The notes below the pieces were generated by a model. The model saw only the letters and a list, made by a program, of their open reading frames with translations. It was not told the origin of the DNA and ran no database searches. A stretch of 33,947 bases of DNA from Candidatus Woesearchaeota archaeon (lineage in GTDB: Archaea; Nanobdellota; Nanobdellia; Woesearchaeales; GW2011-AR4), in NCBI GenBank assembly GCA_016185865.1, contig JACPMU010000044.1:1-33947 (forward strand), written 5' to 3'. Every line of letters starts with the position of its first letter. Position 1 is the first letter of the stretch. The translations under genes and the position numbers were made by a program. Below are positions 11,497-33,947 of this stretch, in pieces.

Positions 11497-12636
11497 ATGG
11501 TAGTTATAATTAAATTTATTGACAAATACGTAGGGAATTTTGTGTGTAATTTTCTTGGCTTGTTCAAGGGAAAGAGGAATGGCGACAAGCCGAAAATTGA
11601 TAAAATACTGATTGTGCAGCTTTGGGGCATAGGGGAGACAATTTTAACGCTGCCTGCCATTGAAGCCCTCAAAGCTAAATTCCCCCATGCAGAGATGGAT
11701 GTCTTGGCCACGCCAAGAAACAAGGATGTTTATTTTAACAATAAAAGCATGGATTCTATTATCCCAATAAAATTAAACCCGTTTTCCATTGCATTGTTTA
11801 TTCTGAAGAATATTAAAAAATATGATTTGGCCATAGACATGGAGGAGTATCTTAATATTTCAGCGGTAATTTCATTTTGTGTGGGCAAAAAAATTGTTGG
11901 GTATTCTCATGGCGCAAGGGCAAAATTGTATGACGTAAAAATAAGATATAATGACAGGCAGCATGCTGTACAGACATTTCTCGATTTAGTGAGGTCTCTG
12001 GGGATTGACTACAATTTTGAGAAATTGCCAAAACTGAATTTCTCCAGGAATGACAAGAATTTTGTTGATAAGTTTTTGAAGAATAATGGAATCAAACGCA
12101 ATGATTTTGCTGTCTGCGTTGCTCCAGGAGCTGCAGAGTCCGCAAAAGCAAGAATGTGGCCTTATAAAAGATATGCTGAATTGTGCGAGGAGCTGATTGC
12201 CAAAAACAATGCCAAGGTAATTTTTGTCGGCAATTCTGATGAAATTCAGCTGATTGAAAGCATACAAAAAAGTATTGAAAAAAAGGACAAAACAATAAAC
12301 ACGGCTGGAAAAATAACTCTTAACCAGCTGTTTTATTTGATAAGCAGGTGCAGGCTTTTCATCGGCAATGACGCAGGACCTATGCACATAGCAGCAGCCC
12401 AGAGCATTAAAACATTGGGATTATTTGGCCCCAATCTGCCGGTAAGGTTTGGGCCTTATGGAAAAGGCAATATTGGACTGTACAAAGGGTATAACTGCGA
12501 ATTCAGCCCGTGCATTAATGTCCATAAAGGCCAGGTTCCGGATTGTTTGTACCCAAAAAACAGCAATGATTACCAGAAATGCATGAAAAACATAAGCGTT
12601 GACGATGTGCTGAAGGAAATTGAGAAGATAACCTAG
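11497..12636 (+). CDS. GT9-family glycosyltransferase (ADP-heptose-dependent heptosyltransferase-like).
   Basis: KILIVQLWGIGETILTLPAIEALKAKFPHAEMDVLA near the N-terminus and FIGNDAGPMHIAAAQSIKTLGLFGP near the C-terminus are classic GT9 signatures. The track start 11482 is TTG; ATG 11497 fits the TATA spacing. Confidence 0.8.
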   Translation: MVVIIKFIDKYVGNFVCNFLGLFKGKRNGDKPKIDKILIVQLWGIGETILTLPAIEALKAKFPHAEMDVLATPRNKDVYFNNKSMDSIIPIKLNPFSIALFILKNIKKYDLAIDMEEYLNISAVISFCVGKKIVGYSHGARAKLYDVKIRYNDRQHAVQTFLDLVRSLGIDYNFEKLPKLNFSRNDKNFVDKFLKNNGIKRNDFAVCVAPGAAESAKARMWPYKRYAELCEELIAKNNAKVIFVGNSDEIQLIESIQKSIEKKDKTINTAGKITLNQLFYLISRCRLFIGNDAGPMHIAAAQSIKTLGLFGPNLPVRFGPYGKGNIGLYKGYNCEFSPCINVHKGQVPDCLYPKNSNDYQKCMKNISVDDVLKEIEKIT

Positions 12637-13385
12637 GCGTTTACATGCAAATATTCCCCATAGGTGAAGAATCCAACCAATTGCTTCATCCTTGCCAGTT
12701 TTGGAAACAAATTTTTTTCCAATGACGCGGCTTCATCAAGCATCTCAAAAACTTCTGGGCTGAAAATGTAAATCCCTGCATTGACTATGTTTGTTGAATA
12801 ATGTTTTGGCTTTTCCTGGAAATCCACAATCAAATCACCATCTAGGATTGCTGTGCCGTAGCTGCTTGTTTTCTCTCTTGTCATCAGCCCCATTGTAGCA
12901 AGCTTTTCAGATTCCATGTGTTTTTTTATCATTTTTAACAGGTCAAAATTATTGTAAGTGTCGCCTGACATCACAACAAAGCTGTTATCCATTTTATCCT
13001 TTACAGCTTTTAATGCGTCTGCGTTTCCCTTTGCCTGCTTTTCAATAATTTCAACATTTATCTTGGCATCAGACATTTCATTGAGAAGCATATTTATATT
13101 TTTAGTATGCTGGGTTATGATATGTATTTTTTTGATGCCATGTTTTGAGAAAAAATCGATTTGGTGTCTGATTAACGATGCTCCTTTGATATATTTTAAT
13201 GCAAATGCCTGGTGCTCGCCCTTAAGCAGCAGTACAGCAGCATTGACTGATTGCTCCTGAAGCCCTTTTTTCAAAAAGTACTCTATTGCTTGCGACCTGC
13301 TTCTCATCACAGAGCCATCTACTTTAGAATCAACTAGCTTTAACAACGAGTTGTCAAGCGATATTGCTATTTTCGCTTTTATCAT
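12633..13385 (-). CDS. Ribbon-helix-helix (CopG-like) domain fused to a sugar-phosphate nucleotidyltransferase-like domain with a degenerate G-loop.
   Basis: N-terminus MIKAKIAISLDNSLLKLVD....RSRSQAIEYFLKKGL is an RHH pattern. The remainder has the NTP-transferase layout (KGNADALKAV, VMSGDTYNNFDL, FQEKPK, NAGIYIF). The LAGGxGTRL loop is replaced by LLLKGEHQAF. Clear paralog of 32074..32871. Confidence 0.75.
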   Translation of the reverse strand: MIKAKIAISLDNSLLKLVDSKVDGSVMRSRSQAIEYFLKKGLQEQSVNAAVLLLKGEHQAFALKYIKGASLIRHQIDFFSKHGIKKIHIITQHTKNINMLLNEMSDAKINVEIIEKQAKGNADALKAVKDKMDNSFVVMSGDTYNNFDLLKMIKKHMESEKLATMGLMTREKTSSYGTAILDGDLIVDFQEKPKHYSTNIVNAGIYIFSPEVFEMLDEAASLEKNLFPKLARMKQLVGFFTYGEYLHVNA

Positions 13386-13466
13386 AGGTATGATAAAGTA
13401 GTAGAAAGTATGACTTTATATTGTTTTATATGATACAGAATATAATTTGGCTCCAGAACCGAAAGA

Positions 13467-13474
13467 TTTAAATA
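13467..13474 (+). promoter_or_regulatory. TATA box of the gmhA operon.
   Basis: TTTAAATA lies 46 nt upstream of ATG 13520. SD-like GGTG at 13511..13514. The predicted transcription start falls inside the palindrome at 13487..13509. Confidence 0.45.
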
Positions 13475-13486
13475 CAAAAACAAGTT

Positions 13487-13509
13487 AAAGTATGAAATAT
13501 TCATACTTT
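13487..13509. promoter_or_regulatory. Operator-like palindrome AAAGTATGAA-ATA-TTCATACTTT.
   Basis: Perfect 10-bp inverted arms with a 3-bp spacer, located between the TATA box and the gmhA start. The same (G/A)TATGA core recurs at 13388, 13408 and 13428, with exact 20-bp spacing. Confidence 0.5.
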
Positions 13510-13519
13510 TGGTGCAACC

Positions 13520-14086
13520 ATGCAAAATGAAATAAAATCGATGATTAATGAAAGCATTGAAACAAAAAGATTAGTGCAGGCTTTATCCCAAAAAATTGAG
13601 GAAGCTGCCAATTTAGTGGTTAAAGTATTAAAAAGCGGCAAGAAAATAATTCTGGCAGGCAACGGAGGCTCATCAACACAGGCATCCCATATTGCAGCAG
13701 AGTTCGCAGGAAGGTACAAGCTTGAAAGAAAGGCTCTTCCGGCACTAGCATTGACAACTGACATGGCTGCAATAACCGCGATAGGCAATGACTACGGGTT
13801 TGAGAATGTGTTTGAAAGGCAGCTGGAAGCATTGGCCAATGAAGGCGATGTGTTTATTGCATTGTCAACAAGCGGCAATTCAGAAAATCTGATTAAAGCG
13901 GCAGAAGCTGCAAAAAAGCTTGATGTTCACGTTATAGGACTTCTTGGAAAAGACGGCGGCAAATTAAGGAATGCCTCAGATCTTGAGATAATAGTTCCTT
14001 CTACCAACACCCCCAGAATACAGGAGGCCCATCTCATGATTTTGCACATAATATGCGAATTGGCTGAAAAGGAGCTGTTTGGTTAA
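13520..14086 (+). CDS. gmhA: Sedoheptulose-7-phosphate isomerase (phosphoheptose isomerase, SIS domain).
   Basis: 188 aa with GNGGSSTQASHIAAEF, NDYGFENVFERQ and ALSTSGNSEN motifs. Pathway context. Confidence 0.9.
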   Translation: MQNEIKSMINESIETKRLVQALSQKIEEAANLVVKVLKSGKKIILAGNGGSSTQASHIAAEFAGRYKLERKALPALALTTDMAAITAIGNDYGFENVFERQLEALANEGDVFIALSTSGNSENLIKAAEAAKKLDVHVIGLLGKDGGKLRNASDLEIIVPSTNTPRIQEAHLMILHIICELAEKELFG

Positions 14087-14087
14087 A

Positions 14088-14981
14088 ATGCTGGACTTCA
14101 ATAAAATAAAAACTATCTCCATAAAACAGAGAAAAAATAAAGTTAAATTGAATGATTTAATCAGGCCTGAAAATTCCAAAGTTTTGATAAATACAAAAGA
14201 ATTTGATGAGCTGTCAAGTCATATAATTAATGCCTACAAAAGCAAGAAACAAATTATCCTGATGATGGGCGCCCATGTGATAAAGGTTGGAATGAGCCTT
14301 TTGATAATCGACCTTATGAAAAAAGGCATTATAAAGTATATTGCAATGAACGGCGCAGGCCCTATACATGATTTTGAGATTGCATTAATCGGAGAAACTT
14401 CTGAATATGTTGAAGATACAATTGAAGACGGGACATTTGGAATGATAGAAGAGACCGGCAGGATTTTGAATGAGGCAATCAAAGAAGGCGCTGAAAAGAA
14501 CTATGGATTGGGGTATTCTGTCGGAAAGAAAATAAGCGATTTAAACCTTCCAAACAAGGAATGCAGCATTTTATACAATGCTTACAAGCTAGGCACTCCA
14601 GCTACCGTGCATGTCGCAATCGGAACAGACATTATACACCAGCACCCGAGCTGCGACGGCGCTGCTGTTGGCAAAACAACATATCAAGATTTTAAAATTT
14701 TTGCAGAAAGCGTAAGCAAGCTTGAAGACGGAGTTGTATTAAACATAGGCTGCGCTGTAATACTGCCGGAAGTTTTTCTAAAAGCATTAACAATTGCAAG
14801 AAATCTTGGATTTAAGGTCGAGAAAATAACAGCAGCAAACCTTGACATGATCGATCATTACAGACCAAGGGAGAATGTTGTCCAGAGGCCGACTTCATTG
14901 GGAGGGAAAGGCTTTATAATCATTGAAAAGCACGAAAAGACAATTCCTACGCTGCACAGGGCACTAACGGAGGGGATTTGA
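14088..14981 (+). CDS. Deoxyhypusine-synthase-family-like protein (DHS-like NAD-binding fold); function uncertain.
   Basis: MMGAHVIKVGMSLLIIDLMKKGIIKYIAMNGAGPIHDFEIAL resembles the archaeal DHS pattern GA.v..Gm..i..L...g.vd.iv.tGAn..HD.ieal. Later AIGTD and SLGGKG segments. The track start 14079 is TTG; ATG 14088 lies 2 nt after the gmhA stop. Confidence 0.45.
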   Translation: MLDFNKIKTISIKQRKNKVKLNDLIRPENSKVLINTKEFDELSSHIINAYKSKKQIILMMGAHVIKVGMSLLIIDLMKKGIIKYIAMNGAGPIHDFEIALIGETSEYVEDTIEDGTFGMIEETGRILNEAIKEGAEKNYGLGYSVGKKISDLNLPNKECSILYNAYKLGTPATVHVAIGTDIIHQHPSCDGAAVGKTTYQDFKIFAESVSKLEDGVVLNIGCAVILPEVFLKALTIARNLGFKVEKITAANLDMIDHYRPRENVVQRPTSLGGKGFIIIEKHEKTIPTLHRALTEGI

Positions 14982-14982
14982 A

Positions 14983-15954
14983 ATGAAGCAAAGGCTGTTG
15001 AAAATCTTGGAGAATTTTAAAAATAAAAGAATTCTTGTAATAGGGGACATAATGCTTGACAAATACATTTGGGGGGATGTCTCAAGAATAAGCCCTGAAG
15101 CTCCTGTTCAGGTGGTTAATGTGTTGAAAGAAACTTATGAAGCTGGAGGGGCGGCTAACGTGGCAAGCAATGTGTCTGCGCTTACAGGAAAGGCATTCAT
15201 GGTCGGCATTGTAGGGAATGACGAGGCTAAAAATATGCTTCTAGAAGAGCTGAATAAGAGGGACATAGATGTTGAAGGCATATTCATAGATAAAGACAAG
15301 CCAACAACCCAAAAAGTTAGAGTAATAGGCAAAAGCCAGCAATTGCTCAGAGTCGATTACGAAAAAAAAGGGCATGCCCATAAGGATACAGAAAATAAAA
15401 TGATTGCGTTCTTTAATAGGATAATCAACAAAGTGGATGTTGTGGCTGTTTCAGACTATGCAAAGGGTGTAATAACACAAACAATTTGCAACAAACTGAT
15501 TCAAATAGCAAAAGACAACAATAAGATGATAATTGTTGATCCGAAGCCGAAGCATAAGGATTTGTATGTGAATGCCACCCTGGTAACTCCAAATAATGCA
15601 GAGGCAAGCGAAATGACAAATATCGAGGATGGGGACGAGGCTGTCTTGGGCGCGGGTGCCAAGCTTTTGGAATGCCTTAATTCAAATGTCTTAATTACAC
15701 GAGGGGAAAAAGGCATGTCTTTGTTTGAGAAAGACGGAAGCATAACTGATATTCCGGCAAAAGCCAAGGAAGTTTACAGCATTATCGGAGCAGGCGACAC
15801 TGTTGTCGCCACTATAGCGCTTGCATTGGCTTCAGGAGCAGATTTGAAGGAAGCGGCTATGCTGGCAAACATCGCAGCCGGGATAAAGGTCGGCAAAATA
15901 GGAACGGCTTCTGTAAGCATTGAAGAAATAAAAAGAGAACTTGAGAATTTATGA
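14983..15954 (+). CDS. hldA: D-glycero-beta-D-manno-heptose-7-phosphate kinase (HldE domain I type, PfkB family).
   Basis: ILVIGDIMLDKYIWGDVSRISPEAPVQVV, GGAANVASNV and C-terminal GAGDTV motifs. 323 aa. Confidence 0.85.
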   Translation: MKQRLLKILENFKNKRILVIGDIMLDKYIWGDVSRISPEAPVQVVNVLKETYEAGGAANVASNVSALTGKAFMVGIVGNDEAKNMLLEELNKRDIDVEGIFIDKDKPTTQKVRVIGKSQQLLRVDYEKKGHAHKDTENKMIAFFNRIINKVDVVAVSDYAKGVITQTICNKLIQIAKDNNKMIIVDPKPKHKDLYVNATLVTPNNAEASEMTNIEDGDEAVLGAGAKLLECLNSNVLITRGEKGMSLFEKDGSITDIPAKAKEVYSIIGAGDTVVATIALALASGADLKEAAMLANIAAGIKVGKIGTASVSIEEIKRELENL

Positions 15955-16478
15955 TAAAGGCAGTTTTTTTGGACCGCGATGGTACAATTGTTGAGGATAC
16001 AGGTTATGTCCATAAAGTGGAGGATTTCAAACTGCTACCAAACTCAATTAAAGGCTTAAGGAAATTAGGAAAATTTATGATTTTTATTGTGACTAACCAA
16101 TCAGGTATAGGAAGAGGGGTGTATAAGCTGGAAGATTTTAAAAAATTCAATAACAAGATGATTGGTGAATTAGGCAAGCACAAAATAAAAATAAAAAAAA
16201 TATATTATTGTCCTCATACACCAGAAGACGATTGTGACTGCCGCAAACCAAAGATAAAGTTTTTGGAGGAGGCGAAGAAAGAATTCAAAATTAACTTGAA
16301 AAGCTCTTTTGTGATTGGAGACCAAAAAGCGGATATTGAATTAGGCAAAAATGGAAATTGTAAGTCAATACTTGTCTTAACTGGTAACGGGAACAAGACA
16401 AAAAAAGATATAAACGCTGATTTTGTTGCTGAAGACTTACTGGATGTTGCAAAATGGATTTTGAAGAATGATAAATAA
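15951..16478 (+). CDS. gmhB: D,D-heptose 1,7-bisphosphate phosphatase (HAD superfamily).
   Basis: AVFLDRDGTI, VTNQSGIGRG, CPHTPEDDCDCRKPK and GDQKADIELG motifs. ATGA overlap with hldA. Confidence 0.85.
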   Translation: MIKAVFLDRDGTIVEDTGYVHKVEDFKLLPNSIKGLRKLGKFMIFIVTNQSGIGRGVYKLEDFKKFNNKMIGELGKHKIKIKKIYYCPHTPEDDCDCRKPKIKFLEEAKKEFKINLKSSFVIGDQKADIELGKNGNCKSILVLTGNGNKTKKDINADFVAEDLLDVAKWILKNDK

Positions 16479-16956
16479 AAAAATAATCACATTGCAAAAA
16501 CTCATTCCAATAGTCCAAAAACTGAAAAAACAAAATAAAAAAATAGTCACAACTAACGGAGTTTTCGACATTCTTCATTTTGGGCATGTAAGATACCTTG
16601 AAAAGGCGAAAAAGCTTGGCGATGTCCTAATTGTGGGTGTTAACACAGACTCTTCTGTAAAGCAGAACAAAGGCGACAAAAGGCCCATCAATGATGAAAA
16701 GTCAAGAATTGCGGTACTGGCAGGCCTGGAAAGCGTTGATTATGCTTTTCTTTTTGGTGAAAAGGATCCAAGGAGCTGGATTTCAAGTATAAAGCCAGAT
16801 GTTCATGTAAAAGCTGGTGATTATAAATTAGGGCAGATTATTGAGAAAAATGTTGTTGAAAAAAATAACGGAAAAATTATTATTGTTAAAGCAGAAAAGG
16901 GATACTCCACAACAGGGCTTATAAACAGTATTCTAGATGCTTATAGAAATCAATAG
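16468..16956 (+). CDS. hldC: D-beta-D-heptose-1-phosphate adenylyltransferase (HldE domain II type, cytidylyltransferase fold).
   Basis: VTTNGVFDILHFGHVRYLEKAKKLGDVLIVGVNTDSSV. 162 aa. Overlaps the gmhB end. Confidence 0.8.
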   Translation: MINKKIITLQKLIPIVQKLKKQNKKIVTTNGVFDILHFGHVRYLEKAKKLGDVLIVGVNTDSSVKQNKGDKRPINDEKSRIAVLAGLESVDYAFLFGEKDPRSWISSIKPDVHVKAGDYKLGQIIEKNVVEKNNGKIIIVKAEKGYSTTGLINSILDAYRNQ

Positions 16957-16987
16957 TTTTTTAAATATTTTACAGTTTTTCTCCACT

Positions 16988-17686
16988 ATGGCAAAACTTT
17001 CGGTTATAATACCTGTTTACAATGAAGAAAAAACTATAAAAAAAGTTATAGACAGGGTAAAAGGTGTGCAATTAAAGAACATAGCAAAGGAGCTTGTCAT
17101 AGTTGATGATTTCTCAACAGACAACACAAGAAACATTTTAAAAAATTTGAAAAATAAATCATTAAAAATATTCTATCATAAAAAAAATATGGGGAAAGGC
17201 GCAGCTATAAGGACAGGCATGAAAAACTCCACTGGAGATTTGATAATAATCCAGGATAGTGATTTAGAATATGATCCTAGTGAATATCCAAAATTATTAA
17301 AGCCTATTGTGGAAAAAAGGGCAAAAGTTGTATATGGCTCAAGATTGGAATCCATAAGAAAAAATGCAAAAAATATGTACAAGCTGCACTATATGGGCAA
17401 TTTGTTCCTTACATTGATGACGAATCTATTGTACGGGGCAAGTATAACTGACATGGAAACTGGCTACAAGGTATTCAGAAAAGAGGTAATTGAAGGCATG
17501 AATTTAAAATCGAATAGATTTGATTTTGAGCCCGAAATCACAGCAAAAATACTCAAGAAAGGCTTTAAAATCCACGAAATTCCTATAGATTTTACCGGGA
17601 GAAAGTTTGAGGAAGGCAAAAAAATTACTTGGATTGACGGCATTAAGGCTTTATACTACCTCATCAAATACAGGGTAGTAGATTAA
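16988..17686 (+). CDS. GT2-family glycosyltransferase.
   Basis: LSVIIPVYNEEKTI...VIVDDFSTDNT...GKGAAIRTG...IIQDSDLEYDP. The track start 16937 adds 17 non-homologous residues, so ATG 16988 is preferred. Confidence 0.85.
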   Translation: MAKLSVIIPVYNEEKTIKKVIDRVKGVQLKNIAKELVIVDDFSTDNTRNILKNLKNKSLKIFYHKKNMGKGAAIRTGMKNSTGDLIIIQDSDLEYDPSEYPKLLKPIVEKRAKVVYGSRLESIRKNAKNMYKLHYMGNLFLTLMTNLLYGASITDMETGYKVFRKEVIEGMNLKSNRFDFEPEITAKILKKGFKIHEIPIDFTGRKFEEGKKITWIDGIKALYYLIKYRVVD

Positions 17687-17687
17687 A

Positions 17688-18419
17688 ATGAGTAAACCAA
17701 ATATTACTATGTTTTTTCCTGCTTATAACGAGGAGAAAAATATCCTAAAACTGCTTAAATCCGCTATAAAAATTCTTAATGATGTTGCTGATAATTATGA
17801 GGTTTTAGTTATAGTTTATGAAGGTTCAACTGATAAAACAATAGACATTGTTAAAAAATTTGCAAATAAAAATAATAAAGTAAAGCTTATAATGCAGCCA
17901 AAAGATAAAAAGGGAATTGGTTATGCAAAAATGATGGGATTTAAAAATGCAAAATATCCTTATATTTTTTATGCAGACTCTGACAATCAGTTTAATTTAA
18001 GGGAATTCAAGAAGTTTTTGCCCTATATAAGCAAATATGACATTATTGCTGGTTATAGGATTAATAGATACGATCCAAAAATCAGAATTATGATCTCAAA
18101 AATCTATAATTGGGCAATGAGCCTCTTGTTTAAGACAAAGGAGCGCGACCTGGACTGTGCCTTCAGGCTGGTAAATAAAAAAGTTATAAATAATATCAAA
18201 CTAGTATGCCATACAGGAGTTGCAACTACAGAGCTCTTGGTCAGAGCAAGGAAAAAGGGATTTAGTATAAAAGAGATTGGCATCAGCCACTACCCAAGAG
18301 AATTTGGAAGATCCTTATTTGAAAGCAATTTGTTAAACTTGCCTAAGCCAAAGGTGGTTATCAGTATATTAAAAGAGATAATCTTGCTTTACAAAGATAT
18401 AAACTCAAAGAATAAATAA
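17688..18419 (+). CDS. GT2-family glycosyltransferase.
   Basis: ITMFFPAYNEEKNI ... EGSTDKT ... FYADSDNQF. Starts 2 nt after the preceding stop. Confidence 0.8.
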   Translation: MSKPNITMFFPAYNEEKNILKLLKSAIKILNDVADNYEVLVIVYEGSTDKTIDIVKKFANKNNKVKLIMQPKDKKGIGYAKMMGFKNAKYPYIFYADSDNQFNLREFKKFLPYISKYDIIAGYRINRYDPKIRIMISKIYNWAMSLLFKTKERDLDCAFRLVNKKVINNIKLVCHTGVATTELLVRARKKGFSIKEIGISHYPREFGRSLFESNLLNLPKPKVVISILKEIILLYKDINSKNK

Positions 18420-18431
18420 TTTTTAAATATT

Positions 18432-19160
18432 ATGGAACTTTCAGTAATCATACCAACTTACAATGAGAAGAAGAATGTTGGAATACTAATTCCAAGAATA
18501 GAGCAATTGTTCTATAAAAGGTACAGGAACGATTTTGAGATTATAGTTGTGGATGACAAGTCTCCGGATGGAACAGCAGAATCAATTATAAAACTGAACA
18601 ATGCATATGGCAACATAAGGTTGATAACCAAAAAGAAAAAAGAGGGCATAGGGAGCGCTCTTAAGGAAGGCTACAGCAATGCAAGAGGCAGCTTGATTTT
18701 GTCAACAGATGCTGATTTATCATTTGATGTCAGGGATATGCTTAGGCTGCTCACAGCAATAAAAAAAGGCCGTGACTTGGTTGTTGGGAGCAGGCACAGG
18801 GCAGGAGGTTTTTACGAGAAGCCAAATATAAAAACCAAAATCAAGGGATTTATAAGCAAATACGGGAATATGATGACAAGAATTTTAACAAATATAGACA
18901 TAAATGATTTTTCTGCGAATTTCAGGATTATAAGGAGAAACGTATGGAAAAAATTGAAAGTTGCAGACAATGCCAATTCCATTCTGTTGGAAATGATACT
19001 TAAGGCAAAATACAAAGGCTATAAAGTTGCAGAAGTGCCTGTAATGTTCATTGACAGGAAATACGGAAAATCGAAGCTGAGTTTGATCAAGGAAATGCCA
19101 AAATTCCTCATGAGGCTGGTTTATTACATCATCAAGTATCGAATTCTAAAATTGGGGTAA
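18432..19160 (+). CDS. GT2-family glycosyltransferase, dolichyl/polyprenyl-phosphate mannose synthase-like.
   Basis: LSVIIPTYNEKKNV...IIVVDDKSPDGTAE...EGIGSALKEGY...STDADLSFD, with a C-terminal hydrophobic tail. Dpm1-like layout. Confidence 0.8.
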   Translation: MELSVIIPTYNEKKNVGILIPRIEQLFYKRYRNDFEIIVVDDKSPDGTAESIIKLNNAYGNIRLITKKKKEGIGSALKEGYSNARGSLILSTDADLSFDVRDMLRLLTAIKKGRDLVVGSRHRAGGFYEKPNIKTKIKGFISKYGNMMTRILTNIDINDFSANFRIIRRNVWKKLKVADNANSILLEMILKAKYKGYKVAEVPVMFIDRKYGKSKLSLIKEMPKFLMRLVYYIIKYRILKLG

Positions 19161-32073: not shown

Positions 32074-32871
32074 TTATATTCTCTCCAAATCTTTTTTAGA
32101 ATGAATATGCACTTCTTTTTCAGAGCTTAAATGGCCGTTAAGCAGCCCTTTCTCAGCAAGCTCAGGAAAAACACTGAACTCAAGGCTGGCTCCTGAATAT
32201 TCGAAAATCTGCGGCTCTGCCACAAAGATAGGCGAAAACACAAGGTATATGTCCGATTTTTTAGGCTTTTGGGTGAAGGTAAGCACCTTGTTGCCCTCAA
32301 CTCTTACAGTCCCCTTTTCACTTGGCTTTGAAGATGTAGTAAGCATGATTGTTGCAATTGCATTCTGCTTTATGTGGTCATTCCACAGCTCTTCAATGTT
32401 TATCCTGTTAAAAATTATATCGCCATAAACAACAAGGAAATTGGAATTAATTTTTCCTTTAAGCAGCCTCAAAGAATCCGCAGTGCCACTGGATTGCTTT
32501 TCCTCTATGTAGCTTATTTTTACGCCATATTCTGTGCCGTCCTTCAGCATCTCAAACAATCTTGTCAATAAGCTGTGCCTTGCAACAATAAACACAGTCT
32601 TGAAATTGTTCTCCCTCAGCTTTTTCAAAGCCAATTCTATAACAGAATTGTTTTTTATCCTTGCAGTCGGTCTGTAGTCATCTTTTGAAATTCTCAAATG
32701 TCTGTCATTGCCGCCAAGAAGAATAACAGCTGCTTTGTTCTCCCCCAAAGCGTTCTTGGCAAGGTGCTCTATAGCTTGGCTTCTGTTGCGGATATAGACA
32801 TTGTCAACGATGGAGTCTATGTCCTGCAAAGTTTTCTCATTTATTGTTATTGAAATCTTGGTTTTAGGCAT
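32074..32871 (-). CDS. Ribbon-helix-helix (CopG-like) domain fused to a sugar-phosphate nucleotidyltransferase-like domain (second paralog).
   Basis: MPKTKISITINEKTLQDIDS....RNRSQAIEHLAKNAL, then ILLGGNDRHLRI (degenerate GGxGTRL), GTADSLRLL, VVYGDIIFN and FTQKPK. The track start 32997 is GTG and adds 42 residues with no counterpart in the paralog. The first ATG is 32871. Confidence 0.75.
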   Translation of the reverse strand: MPKTKISITINEKTLQDIDSIVDNVYIRNRSQAIEHLAKNALGENKAAVILLGGNDRHLRISKDDYRPTARIKNNSVIELALKKLRENNFKTVFIVARHSLLTRLFEMLKDGTEYGVKISYIEEKQSSGTADSLRLLKGKINSNFLVVYGDIIFNRINIEELWNDHIKQNAIATIMLTTSSKPSEKGTVRVEGNKVLTFTQKPKKSDIYLVFSPIFVAEPQIFEYSGASLEFSVFPELAEKGLLNGHLSSEKEVHIHSKKDLERI

Positions 32872-32918
32872 TTTATTGTTTTGTTGTATTGAATGTATTG
32901 GCGAGGCATTGCGATATG

Positions 32919-32971
32919 TCGATAAATCGCAAAGCGATTTTCGATCATCATCGAAAATCTTTGATTTTCGA
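32919..32971. promoter_or_regulatory. Cluster of inverted and direct repeats built on GATTTTCGA / TCGAAAATC.
   Basis: GATTTTCGAT (32936..32945), CATC, then ATCGAAAATC (32950..32959) form a perfect 10-bp inverted repeat. A third direct copy GATTTTCGA is at 32963..32971. AAATCGC-AAA-GCGATTT at 32924..32940 overlaps the first arm. The cluster lies in the divergent region between the RHH-fusion gene and ugd. Confidence 0.45.
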
Positions 32972-33083
32972 GATGGCAGAAAAGCAATGCCGAGCACTAA
33001 CTATTGTCTCGAAGGGACGGATTGAATTTTTATAATCAATTCACATCATTTTTGGTAGTATAAAGTAGGATAATGGTAAGATA

Positions 33084-33090
33084 TTTAAAT
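33084..33090 (+). promoter_or_regulatory. TATA box of ugd.
   Basis: TTTAAAT lies about 23-26 nt upstream of ATGATG at 33110, implying a leaderless mRNA. Confidence 0.45.
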
Positions 33091-33109
33091 ATGTTTCTCT
33101 TCTAAAGCC

Positions 33110-33947
33110 ATGATGAAAATTGCAATTGTTGGCGCAGGCTATGTTGGCCTTGTTACAGGAGCGTGCTTTGCAGAGCTTGGCAATGATGTTGTGTGCGTCG
33201 ACATAGACGAAGACAAGATAAGAAAGCTGAATCAAAACATCATTCCAATATTTGAGCCCGGCTTGGAAGAGTTATTGATGAAAAACATGAAGAAAGGAAA
33301 AATAAGCTTCACAAGAGAGCTTAAAAAAGCAATAAAAGAGTCTGAAATAATATTCATCTGCGTTGGAACTCCCCCAAAGGAAAACGGAGAAGCGGATTTG
33401 AGCTACGTTGAAAACGTTGCAAGGACCATTGCTGATGCAATGGACTCCTACAAGATAATTGTGGAAAAAAGCACTGTGCCTGTTGAGACAGGGGAAAAGG
33501 TTGCAAAGTCAATAAAGAGCTACAATGCGCACAAGGCTGATTTTGATGTTGTCAGCAATCCTGAATTTTTAAGGGAAGGGAGCGCTGTGAATGACTTCAT
33601 GCACCCTGACAGGATAGTGATAGGGTGCGAGAGCGAAAAAGCAAAGAAAATAATGAGTGAATTGTACTCGCCATTAAAAGCCCCAATTATATTCACAGAC
33701 ATAAAAAGCGCTGAAATCATAAAGCACGCATCAAACTCGTTCTTGGCAACAAAAATATCATTCATAAATGCAATAGCAAGCATCTGTGAATTGTCAGGGG
33801 CTGATGTTGAAAAGGTTGCAGAGGGAATGGGGCTTGACAAAAGAATCGGAAGAAGCTTCCTTGATGCTGGCATAGGATATGGAGGATTTTGCTTTCCAAA
33901 GGATGCAGAGGCATTCATAAGAATATCAGAAAAGTTTGGATATGACT
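33110..33947 (+). CDS. ugd: UDP-glucose 6-dehydrogenase, 5' part (runs off the right edge).
   Basis: Hand translation: MMKIAIVGAGYVGLVTGACFAELGNDVVCVDIDEDKIRKLNQNIIPIFEPGLEELL...FICVGTPP...NPEFLREGSAV...GIGYGGFCFPKD. Absent from the track because it has no stop in the window. Confidence 0.9.
   Translation, partial: MMKIAIVGAGYVGLVTGACFAELGNDVVCVDIDEDKIRKLNQNIIPIFEPGLEELLMKNMKKGKISFTRELKKAIKESEIIFICVGTPPKENGEADLSYVENVARTIADAMDSYKIIVEKSTVPVETGEKVAKSIKSYNAHKADFDVVSNPEFLREGSAVNDFMHPDRIVIGCESEKAKKIMSELYSPLKAPIIFTDIKSAEIIKHASNSFLATKISFINAIASICELSGADVEKVAEGMGLDKRIGRSFLDAGIGYGGFCFPKDAEAFIRISEKFGYD

Follow-up and report, generated by a model that had tools for sequence, protein, structure and literature searches.

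In the genome of a Candidatus Woesearchaeota archaeon (DPANN), the 134-bp spacer (13386-13519) between gmhA and the divergently oriented gene for a ribbon-helix-helix (RHH) fusion protein (hereafter the regulator) carries repeated GTATGA-like subsites. These are probably operators at which the regulator would repress both the putative heptose operon beginning with gmhA and its own gene. The stretch analyzed (the window) comprises 33,947 nucleotides (nt) of contig JACPMU010000044.1 and belongs to an 866-kb genome (104 contigs, 39% GC) that is 69% complete. In the arrangement proposed here, the spacer would consist of two divergent archaeal promoters, each with a B recognition element (BRE) and a TATA box, and, downstream of each, an operator in which NikR-type GTAnnA subsites recur at intervals of one helical turn. 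The elements in question are the following.

12633-13385, minus strand: regulator gene; its 250-amino-acid (aa) product combines an N-terminal RHH with a sugar-1-phosphate nucleotidyltransferase fold
13383-13385, minus strand: start of the regulator gene, CAT on the plus strand, read directly
13388-13393, plus strand: GTATGA, predicted auto-operator subsite 1, 2 bp from the regulator start codon; GTA..A kept in 17 loci
13398-13403, plus strand: GTAGTA, predicted auto-operator subsite 2, degenerate, 10 bp from subsites 1 and 3; GTA..A invariant
13408-13413, plus strand: GTATGA, predicted auto-operator subsite 3, GTATTA in most relatives; conserved block AAAGTAT(T/G)AC
13414-13433, minus strand: TATA-like elements of the regulator promoter (AATATAAAG, ATATAAAA), conserved as TTTATAT/TTATAT blocks; contains ATATGA at 13428-13433
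13460-13474, plus strand: BRE (CGAAAGA) and TATA box TTTAAATA (13467-13474) of the gmhA operon promoter; AAAGCGAAAG-(A/T)TTTA(A/T)A(T/A)A kept in all aligned loci
13487-13509: perfect 10+3+10 palindrome AAAGTATGAA-ATA-TTCATACTTT, read directly
13490-13506, strandless: predicted target operator, the 17-bp inverted repeat GTATGAA-ATA-TTCATAC, subsite centers 11 bp apart
13510-13522, plus strand: Shine-Dalgarno (SD) sequence GGTG (13510-13513), which recurs in relatives, and the gmhA ATG (from 13520)

An earlier inspection of this DNA (the sequence-only reading) had reported three copies of (G/A)TATGA, the palindrome, and the TATA box of gmhA; direct reading confirmed the positions of all of them and placed CGAAAG directly 5′ of the TATA box. 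The spacer was then compared with its counterparts in ~35 related genomes. An ortholog of the regulator with 62-88% identity was present in 23 Woesearchaeota loci, and 17 spacers were aligned. In nearly all 23 loci, the ortholog gene is divergent from a sugar isomerase gene, which encodes either a gmhA-type SIS protein or, in ~8 loci, a small cupin; GSU2086-like, kinase, and phosphatase genes come next. Conservation within the 17 spacers was concentrated in four islands. The first, located at the regulator start codon, reads GGTATGA-N3-AGTAGTA-N3-AGTAT(T/G)AC, that is, three GTAnnA subsites with a period of 10 bp. The second consists of the TATA-like blocks at 13414-13433, and the third, AAAGCGAAAG-(A/T)TTTA(A/T)A(T/A)A, is an archaeal BRE/TATA. 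The fourth is GTATGAA-NNN-TTCATAC, in which the spacer is free (AAT, AGT, AAA, ATT, ACT, and others). Conservation in related bins, to which the sequence-only reading had pointed as a check, was thus found for the subsites as well as for the palindrome core: all 12 positions of GTATGA/TCATAC and the GTA..A of each direct subsite were invariant or nearly so, and variation was found in the 3-bp spacer and the flanks. Across dozens of genomes, with regulators down to ~43-50% identity, the arms of the palindrome did not vary.

The footprint also changed how the elements are to be grouped. The three (G/A)TATGA copies had been taken as phased by 20 bp, or two helical turns; the array that is conserved comprises three subsites with a 10-bp period, one of which, the degenerate GTAGTA at 13398-13403, was absent from the original list, and the 20-bp interval is an accident of this genome. 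The supposed third half-site, ATATGA at 13428, was not conserved and corresponds to TTATATT(C/G)T in relatives, a TATA-like block of the RHH gene. The palindrome is indeed perfect here, and its inner 7+3+7 part (13490-13506) is conserved, whereas the outer AAA/TTT is unpaired in most relatives. Its placement between the gmhA TATA box and the SD/ATG was borne out, as both the BRE/TATA and the order of the elements are conserved in the 17 loci. Likewise, the suggestion that further copies occupy the regulator's own promoter, which would allow autoregulation, agrees with the three direct subsites conserved there in the same loci.

In this locus and eight others, the palindrome starts 23 bp after the first base of the TATA box; in six loci, the distance is 12 bp, and in two it is 19 bp. 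The archaeal transcription start is usually situated ∼26-27 bp from the TATA center; with this distance assumed, the palindrome spans ∼-7 to +10 of the predicted start in the 23-bp class and -18 to -2 in the 12-bp class. As the two main classes differ by 11 bp, that is, by one helical turn, the side of the preinitiation complex that a bound protein faces would be the same in both. At the regulator promoter, the ∼30 bp that separate the proximal TATA-like element from the ATG are taken up by the three direct subsites. L023, the most distant locus, has a clean TTTAAATA box with TTCATAC-N4-TTCATAC and the regulator ATG directly after it, which implies a leaderless regulator mRNA; in the present genome, the regulator transcript is probably leaderless, or nearly so. 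Between the two operators, no clear pattern of helical phasing was discernible (distances of 64-65, 76-82, and 106 bp). One locus departs from this layout: in L001 (2400-3003), whose regulator has 88% identity, neither the subsite array nor the TATA of the regulator promoter is present, and the regulator ATG is ∼10 bp away from the divergent promoter's BRE/TATA, which is reversed; a 185-aa open reading frame (ORF) without Pfam match precedes the SIS gene there and starts at a distance of 1 nt from the palindrome.

From this geometry, the following mechanism is proposed. The 250-aa protein would bind both operators with one RHH dimer per subsite, neighboring dimers being placed on the same face of the DNA. 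On the gmhA side, the operator would be the inverted pair at 13490-13506, whose first base is 23 bp downstream of that of the TATA box and which covers the predicted transcription start; on the regulator side, it would be the three direct subsites starting at 13388, 13398, and 13408. Protein situated between the TATA box and the start site would keep RNA polymerase from being recruited, and the outcome would be repression of the ADP-heptose/glycosyltransferase operon and of the regulator's own gene. The C-terminal domain might sense, for example, the end product, a nucleoside diphosphate (NDP)-heptose, as co-repressor.

Whether operator and regulator occur together was assessed in 151 genomes, evenly drawn from the order, of which 37 contained an ortholog at a cut-off of E ≤ 1e-40 and 114 did not. 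The perfect palindrome (14 positions) was present in 19 of the 151 genomes, once in each, and a reversed control pattern in three. All 19 genomes carry a regulator ortholog (E below 1e-60), which corresponds to 19 of the 37 with and none of the 114 without an ortholog. The looser core GTATGA-N5-TCATAC was found in 28 of the 37 ortholog-bearing genomes versus 12 of the 114 others, the latter being approximately the control rate. In some of the ortholog-bearing genomes without an exact core, the arrangement of the subsites was exchanged: G099 has a direct pair at gmhA and the inverted one at the promoter of the regulator gene, and G038 and G110 have inverted pairs at both promoters.

In 14 of the 19 genomes, the palindrome lies no more than ~160 bp from the regulator gene, and in two it is ∼1 kb away, with another gene inserted. 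In the three remaining cases, the two are unlinked. In G102, the regulator gene is 35 kb away and the palindrome is located just after the BRE/TATA of hldE; in G027, the regulator gene resides on another contig and the palindrome just after the BRE/TATA at the gmhA promoter; in G081, the contig ends too soon for the gene adjoining the palindrome to be named. The presence of the palindrome at hldE and gmhA promoters even when the regulator is encoded elsewhere indicates that the site follows the heptose genes and not merely the regulator gene. Insertions between the two were of different kinds. An EamA-family transporter gene, co-directional with the regulator, stands between palindrome and regulator gene at L040 1715-2566 (G105), and at L041 937-3118 (G130), likewise with an insertion, the palindrome precedes a 404-aa ORF without Pfam match.

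The RHH of the regulator comprises residues ∼3-45, with the ribbon K-I-A-I-S-L. It is matched by the NCBIfam NikR model at residues 5-49 (E=8e-4), which covers only profile positions 2-46 of 129 and scores 19.6-20 bits against a cut-off of 175; Pfam NTP_transferase (PF00483) matches residues 66-217 (E=1.5e-25). An AlphaFold2 (AF2) model (pLDDT 94.4) consists of an N-terminal strand region, helices at 12-20 and 30-44 (pLDDT 87-96), and then a GMPPB/VTC1-like fold. Searched with Foldseek, it reached a TM score of 0.7 to VTC1/GMPPB, the best structural matches being GDP-mannose pyrophosphorylases, including the regulatory pseudoenzyme GMPPA, and the sole PDB match of the RHH head was the RHH domain of Escherichia coli NikR (1q5v/2hzv). 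The ribbon residues Arg3, Thr5, and Thr7 of NikR, which reportedly make the base contacts, align with Lys5, Ala7, and Ser9 of the regulator. In an alignment of 44 family members, the regulator and its orthologs have LLKGEH, with a 9-residue deletion, in place of the G-loop GGxGTRL; in the C-terminal WxDxG motif of the regulator, His takes the place of Asp; the pocket motifs GD, EKP, and NAGIY (NxGxY) are kept. By this alignment, the C-terminal domain is a sugar-nucleotidyltransferase fold without catalytic G-loop, that is, a pseudoenzyme, and its most likely role is to sense a nucleotide-sugar or sugar-phosphate of the pathway.

The regulator (family 1) was compared with two families of paralogs. 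For each of families 2 and 3, 30 orthologous loci were gathered, and the arrangements of subsites upstream of each family's gene were counted.

Family 1, the regulator, 12633-13385: ribbon K-I-A-I-S; G-loop deleted; inverted GTATGA-N5-TCATAC in 22/33 of its own loci and in 0/30 and 0/30 of those of families 2 and 3
Family 2, window 32098-32871: ribbon K-I-S-I-T; G-loop partly degenerate; two to three direct GTA(A/G)GA repeats in 26/30 of its own loci and in 0 of the other families
Family 3, C89:5565-6422 (L036 2063-2923): ribbon R-V-T-I-T, as in NikR; G-loop intact (VGGRGTRL); direct GTATGA(T) repeats in 16/30 of its own loci, 4/33 of family 1, and 0 of family 2

Each family travels with its own version of a GTAnnA grammar phased by 10-11 bp. 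This is the strongest computational support available, as family-specific operators are to be expected if these proteins bind these sites. Taken together with the conservation of the arms, the co-occurrence, the tracking of the target genes, and the use of the NikR half-site, we infer that, as the sequence-only reading had predicted, the adjacent RHH protein has its operators in these repeats.

Several points weigh against repression by the regulator as proposed above. About one-quarter of the ortholog-bearing genomes lack the exact core and have one-mismatch or rearranged versions instead. All genomes in the sample are metagenome-assembled, belong to one order, and are related, and are therefore statistically less independent than the counts suggest. 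The proposed ligand is guessed from the fold, and repression is read from position only, both operators being located where archaeal repressors would block the recruitment of RNA polymerase. Finally, the family-3 paralog and E. coli NikR have one and the same ribbon, RVTITLD, the GTATGA core is common to families 1 and 3, and subsite 1 with its flank (GTATGATAAAGTA) is identical to the family-3 operator; going by these sequences, cross-binding between the two families is possible.

The same protein might instead use the same sites as an activator, or as a dual activator/repressor, of the heptose operon. The direct repeats of families 2 and 3, situated upstream of or abutting the BRE/TATA of the divergent gene, occupy the usual position of archaeal activators. 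The palindrome, however, is downstream of the TATA box here and in all 17 aligned loci, at -18 to +10 of the predicted start, which is the classic polymerase-blocking position, and activation therefore appears rather unlikely.

It is likewise unlikely that the operators are bound by another RHH protein, namely, the family-3 paralog (C89:5565-6422) or a NikR-like protein (C64:2663-3022). The former possesses the ribbon of E. coli NikR, which binds GTATGA, and its own promoter carries GTATGATAAAGTATGATAAA. Yet the inverted N5 arrangement is found upstream of family-1 genes only (22/33 versus 0/30 for family 3), and the perfect palindrome is confined to genomes with a family-1 ortholog, despite the presence of family 3 in 89 of the 151 genomes. 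The latter is encoded by a full-length NikR-like gene that does exist in this genome (82.8 bits, which is below the NikR cut-off). Its ribbon is a different one (VRTGISF), and the repeats next to its gene, which is divergent from a gene for a NiCoT-type nickel/cobalt transporter, are of another kind; furthermore, this genome was found to contain no GTATGA-N10-18-TCATAC, the two-turn operator of the NikR type. On these grounds, the canonical NikR-like protein was rejected as an unlikely binder. The spacer beside the NikR-like gene (to ∼C64:3130) contains GTAACAC-N13-GTAATAT, similar to the NikR box of delta-proteobacteria given in PMC545781.

If transcribed, the palindrome could also fold into a hairpin of 10 bp (-10.6 kcal/mol; z = -2.15), which in this genome would lie within the predicted gmhA 5′ leader, only a few nt 5′ of the SD, and might control translation or mRNA stability. 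The pattern of variation argues against it: the seven core pairs did not vary, covariation did not exceed that of shuffles, most relatives cannot form the outer three pairs, and L003 and L019 each have a single change in the palindrome that is not compensated. Furthermore, in the six loci where the palindrome is at -18 to -2 of the predicted start, it would not be transcribed, and the same subsites occur as direct repeats, which are unable to pair, at the regulator promoter and in the paralog families. An RNA element is thus very improbable.

The frequency of the motifs was determined in the window and genome-wide. The 9-mer AAAGTATGA is present in three copies in the window, compared with 0.51 expected, and in none of 100 shuffles were three reached. 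Five (G/A)TATGA hexamers on both strands of the 134-bp spacer compare with 0.12 expected (Poisson P ∼2e-7) and constitute the densest such cluster of the whole 866-kb genome. The palindrome is unique in this genome; the runner-up has two mismatches and is situated at the start of a coding sequence. Genome-wide, AAAGTATGA occurs 14 times versus ∼16 times expected from base composition. Ten of these copies are within ORFs, and every one of the four intergenic copies is beside an RHH-nucleotidyltransferase gene, three in this spacer and one at C89:6483, which a crude ORF mask had placed under a spurious 135-aa ORF. The concern that the motif occurs at background frequency is thus justified for the 9-mer genome-wide, but does not apply to the cluster in the spacer or to the intergenic copies. 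The idea that the motif marks other glycosylation promoters had to be abandoned for this genome, which is 69% complete: beyond the C89 paralog promoter, there was no credible intergenic site among 9-mer copies, palindromes with up to three mismatches, or tandem GTATGA pairs with up to two mismatches. C28:3927 and a cluster at C35:17098 were considered as further sites and discarded, both being coding. Chance similarity in AT-rich intergenic DNA, with which only the composition-like genome-wide number of 9-mers would agree, is excluded for practical purposes by the phylogenetic footprint, with arms invariant across dozens of genomes, by the uniqueness of the palindrome, and by the excess of hexamers in the spacer.

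The operator of E. coli NikR is GTATGA-N16-TCATAC (PMC7055735), and the enterobacterial consensus is GTATGAT-N13/14-ATCATAC (PMC545781). The regulator resembles NikR in having an N-terminal RHH head followed by a ligand-sensing domain and in the hexamer half-site GTATGA/TCATAC; it would also repress, as NikR does, by occupying the promoter. It differs in its sensor, which has a nucleotidyltransferase fold instead of the ACT-like nickel-binding tetramerization domain of NikR, in the spacing of its half-sites (N5, or one turn, versus N16, or two turns), in its ribbon (K-A-S versus R-T-T), and in its predicted target, which is the synthesis of sugar nucleotides and not the uptake of nickel; in addition, this genome has a separate NikR-like gene. 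Judged by the absence of the nickel-binding domain and by the one-turn spacing, the regulator is a protein that uses the NikR half-site and yet is not a NikR.

Repression from repeated subsites combined with autoregulation, as proposed here, would be shared with MetJ, Arc, and NikR. Arc, Mnt, CopG, and the omega repressor place one RHH dimer on each short subsite, bind cooperatively on successive turns, and typically regulate their own synthesis. The heptads bound by the omega repressor may be direct or inverted; here, the inverted arrangement is found at the target and the direct one at the regulator promoter, with the two exchanged in some relatives. Arc, Mnt, CopG, and omega have no effector domain and are of phage or plasmid origin, in contrast to the regulator, which is chromosomal, bears a ligand domain, and would act on an archaeal BRE/TATA promoter. 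In PutA, an RHH is fused to proline-catabolic enzymes and represses from the divergent putA-putP spacer, the active enzyme being switched by redox state and membrane association. The regulator similarly joins an RHH head to a metabolic enzyme fold, with multiple short sites in a divergent spacer that includes its own promoter, but is a pseudoenzyme, so that PutA is closest to the family-3 paralog with its intact G-loop. GMPPA (PDB 7d72; Foldseek E ∼1e-17) has the same fold, and there, too, a dead nucleotidyltransferase serves as product sensor for feedback, a function that the regulator would share; GMPPA, however, senses GDP-mannose, inhibits an enzyme allosterically, and is devoid of a DNA-binding domain.

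To our knowledge, gene regulation is almost unexplored in DPANN archaea, which cannot be cultivated by themselves, and a literature search retrieved no publication on RHH-nucleotidyltransferase regulators. The comparative data yield a complete candidate regulator-operator pair, with a 17-bp site, an auto-operator, a small soluble protein, and a few candidate ligands from the ADP-heptose pathway. They also point to reuse of the NikR half-site, one RHH recognition code being combined with a different spacing and a different sensor, and the three families represent a natural specificity series, in which K-A-S, K-S-T, and R-T-T ribbons are set against GTATGAA, GTA(A/G)GA, and GTATGAT. As a speculation, for which we would claim only limited probability, these proteins could form an undescribed family of one-component archaeal regulators, in which a NikR-type RHH is joined to a live or dead sugar-nucleotidyltransferase. 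With three such lineages of paralogs in a genome, and a GTAnnA code particular to each, a small network might result that responds to nucleotide-sugars and determines how surface-glycan precursors are supplied, and family 1 might be the first transcription factor known to sense ADP-/NDP-heptose. Because ADP-heptose is an agonist of innate immunity, a protein that binds it specifically could, if this is true, become a biosensor. The present analysis adds the corrected phasing, the 11-bp step between promoter classes, the unlinked palindromes at hldE and gmhA, the setting aside of the NikR-like protein, and the operators of the three families as listed above.

The genes that would be controlled from the palindrome form one tightly packed unit.

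13520-19160, plus strand: putative regulated operon, genes overlapping or no more than 13 nt apart

Their order is gmhA, a GSU2086/deoxyhypusine-synthase-like gene, heptose-7-phosphate kinase, gmhB, heptose-1-phosphate adenylyltransferase, and three GT2 glycosyltransferases. The GSU2086-family gene (window 14079-14981; NCBIfam E=7e-124), which has weak similarity to deoxyhypusine synthase, is kept between the isomerase and the heptose kinase genes here and in the relatives examined (L003 and L015). In ∼8 relatives (L004, L007, L015, and L017-L020), a cupin of 118-138 aa (Cupin_2/D-lyxose-isomerase-like) stands in for gmhA behind the palindrome, for example at L015 2450-2860, with the usual GSU2086-like, kinase, and gmhB genes behind it. 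The cupin may be a non-homologous replacement of the heptose isomerase.

In the family-3 spacer (L036 2924-3029), GTATGATAAAGTATGATAAA is located between two divergent BRE/TATA boxes, and the genes divergent from the family-3 gene resemble class II fructose/sedoheptulose bisphosphatase, class I aldolase, and glyceraldehyde-3-phosphate dehydrogenase (GAPDH). Such enzymes supply sugar phosphates, possibly including sedoheptulose-7-phosphate, the substrate of GmhA. In 26 of 30 family-2 loci, a TCTTAC-N4/5-TCCTAC(-N4-TCCGAT) array lies between two TATA boxes. The same array forms the predicted family-2 operator of this window (33055-33092, within the spacer 32872-33109), which comprises GTAGTA at 33055, GTAGGA at 33065, and GTAAGA at 33076, spaced by 10-11 bp, and abuts TATTTAAATA before a UDP-glucose-dehydrogenase-like gene (ATG at 33110). 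At 238 bp, this spacer is unusually long, and it holds GATTTTCGAT/ATCGAAAATC repeats at ∼32930-32975.

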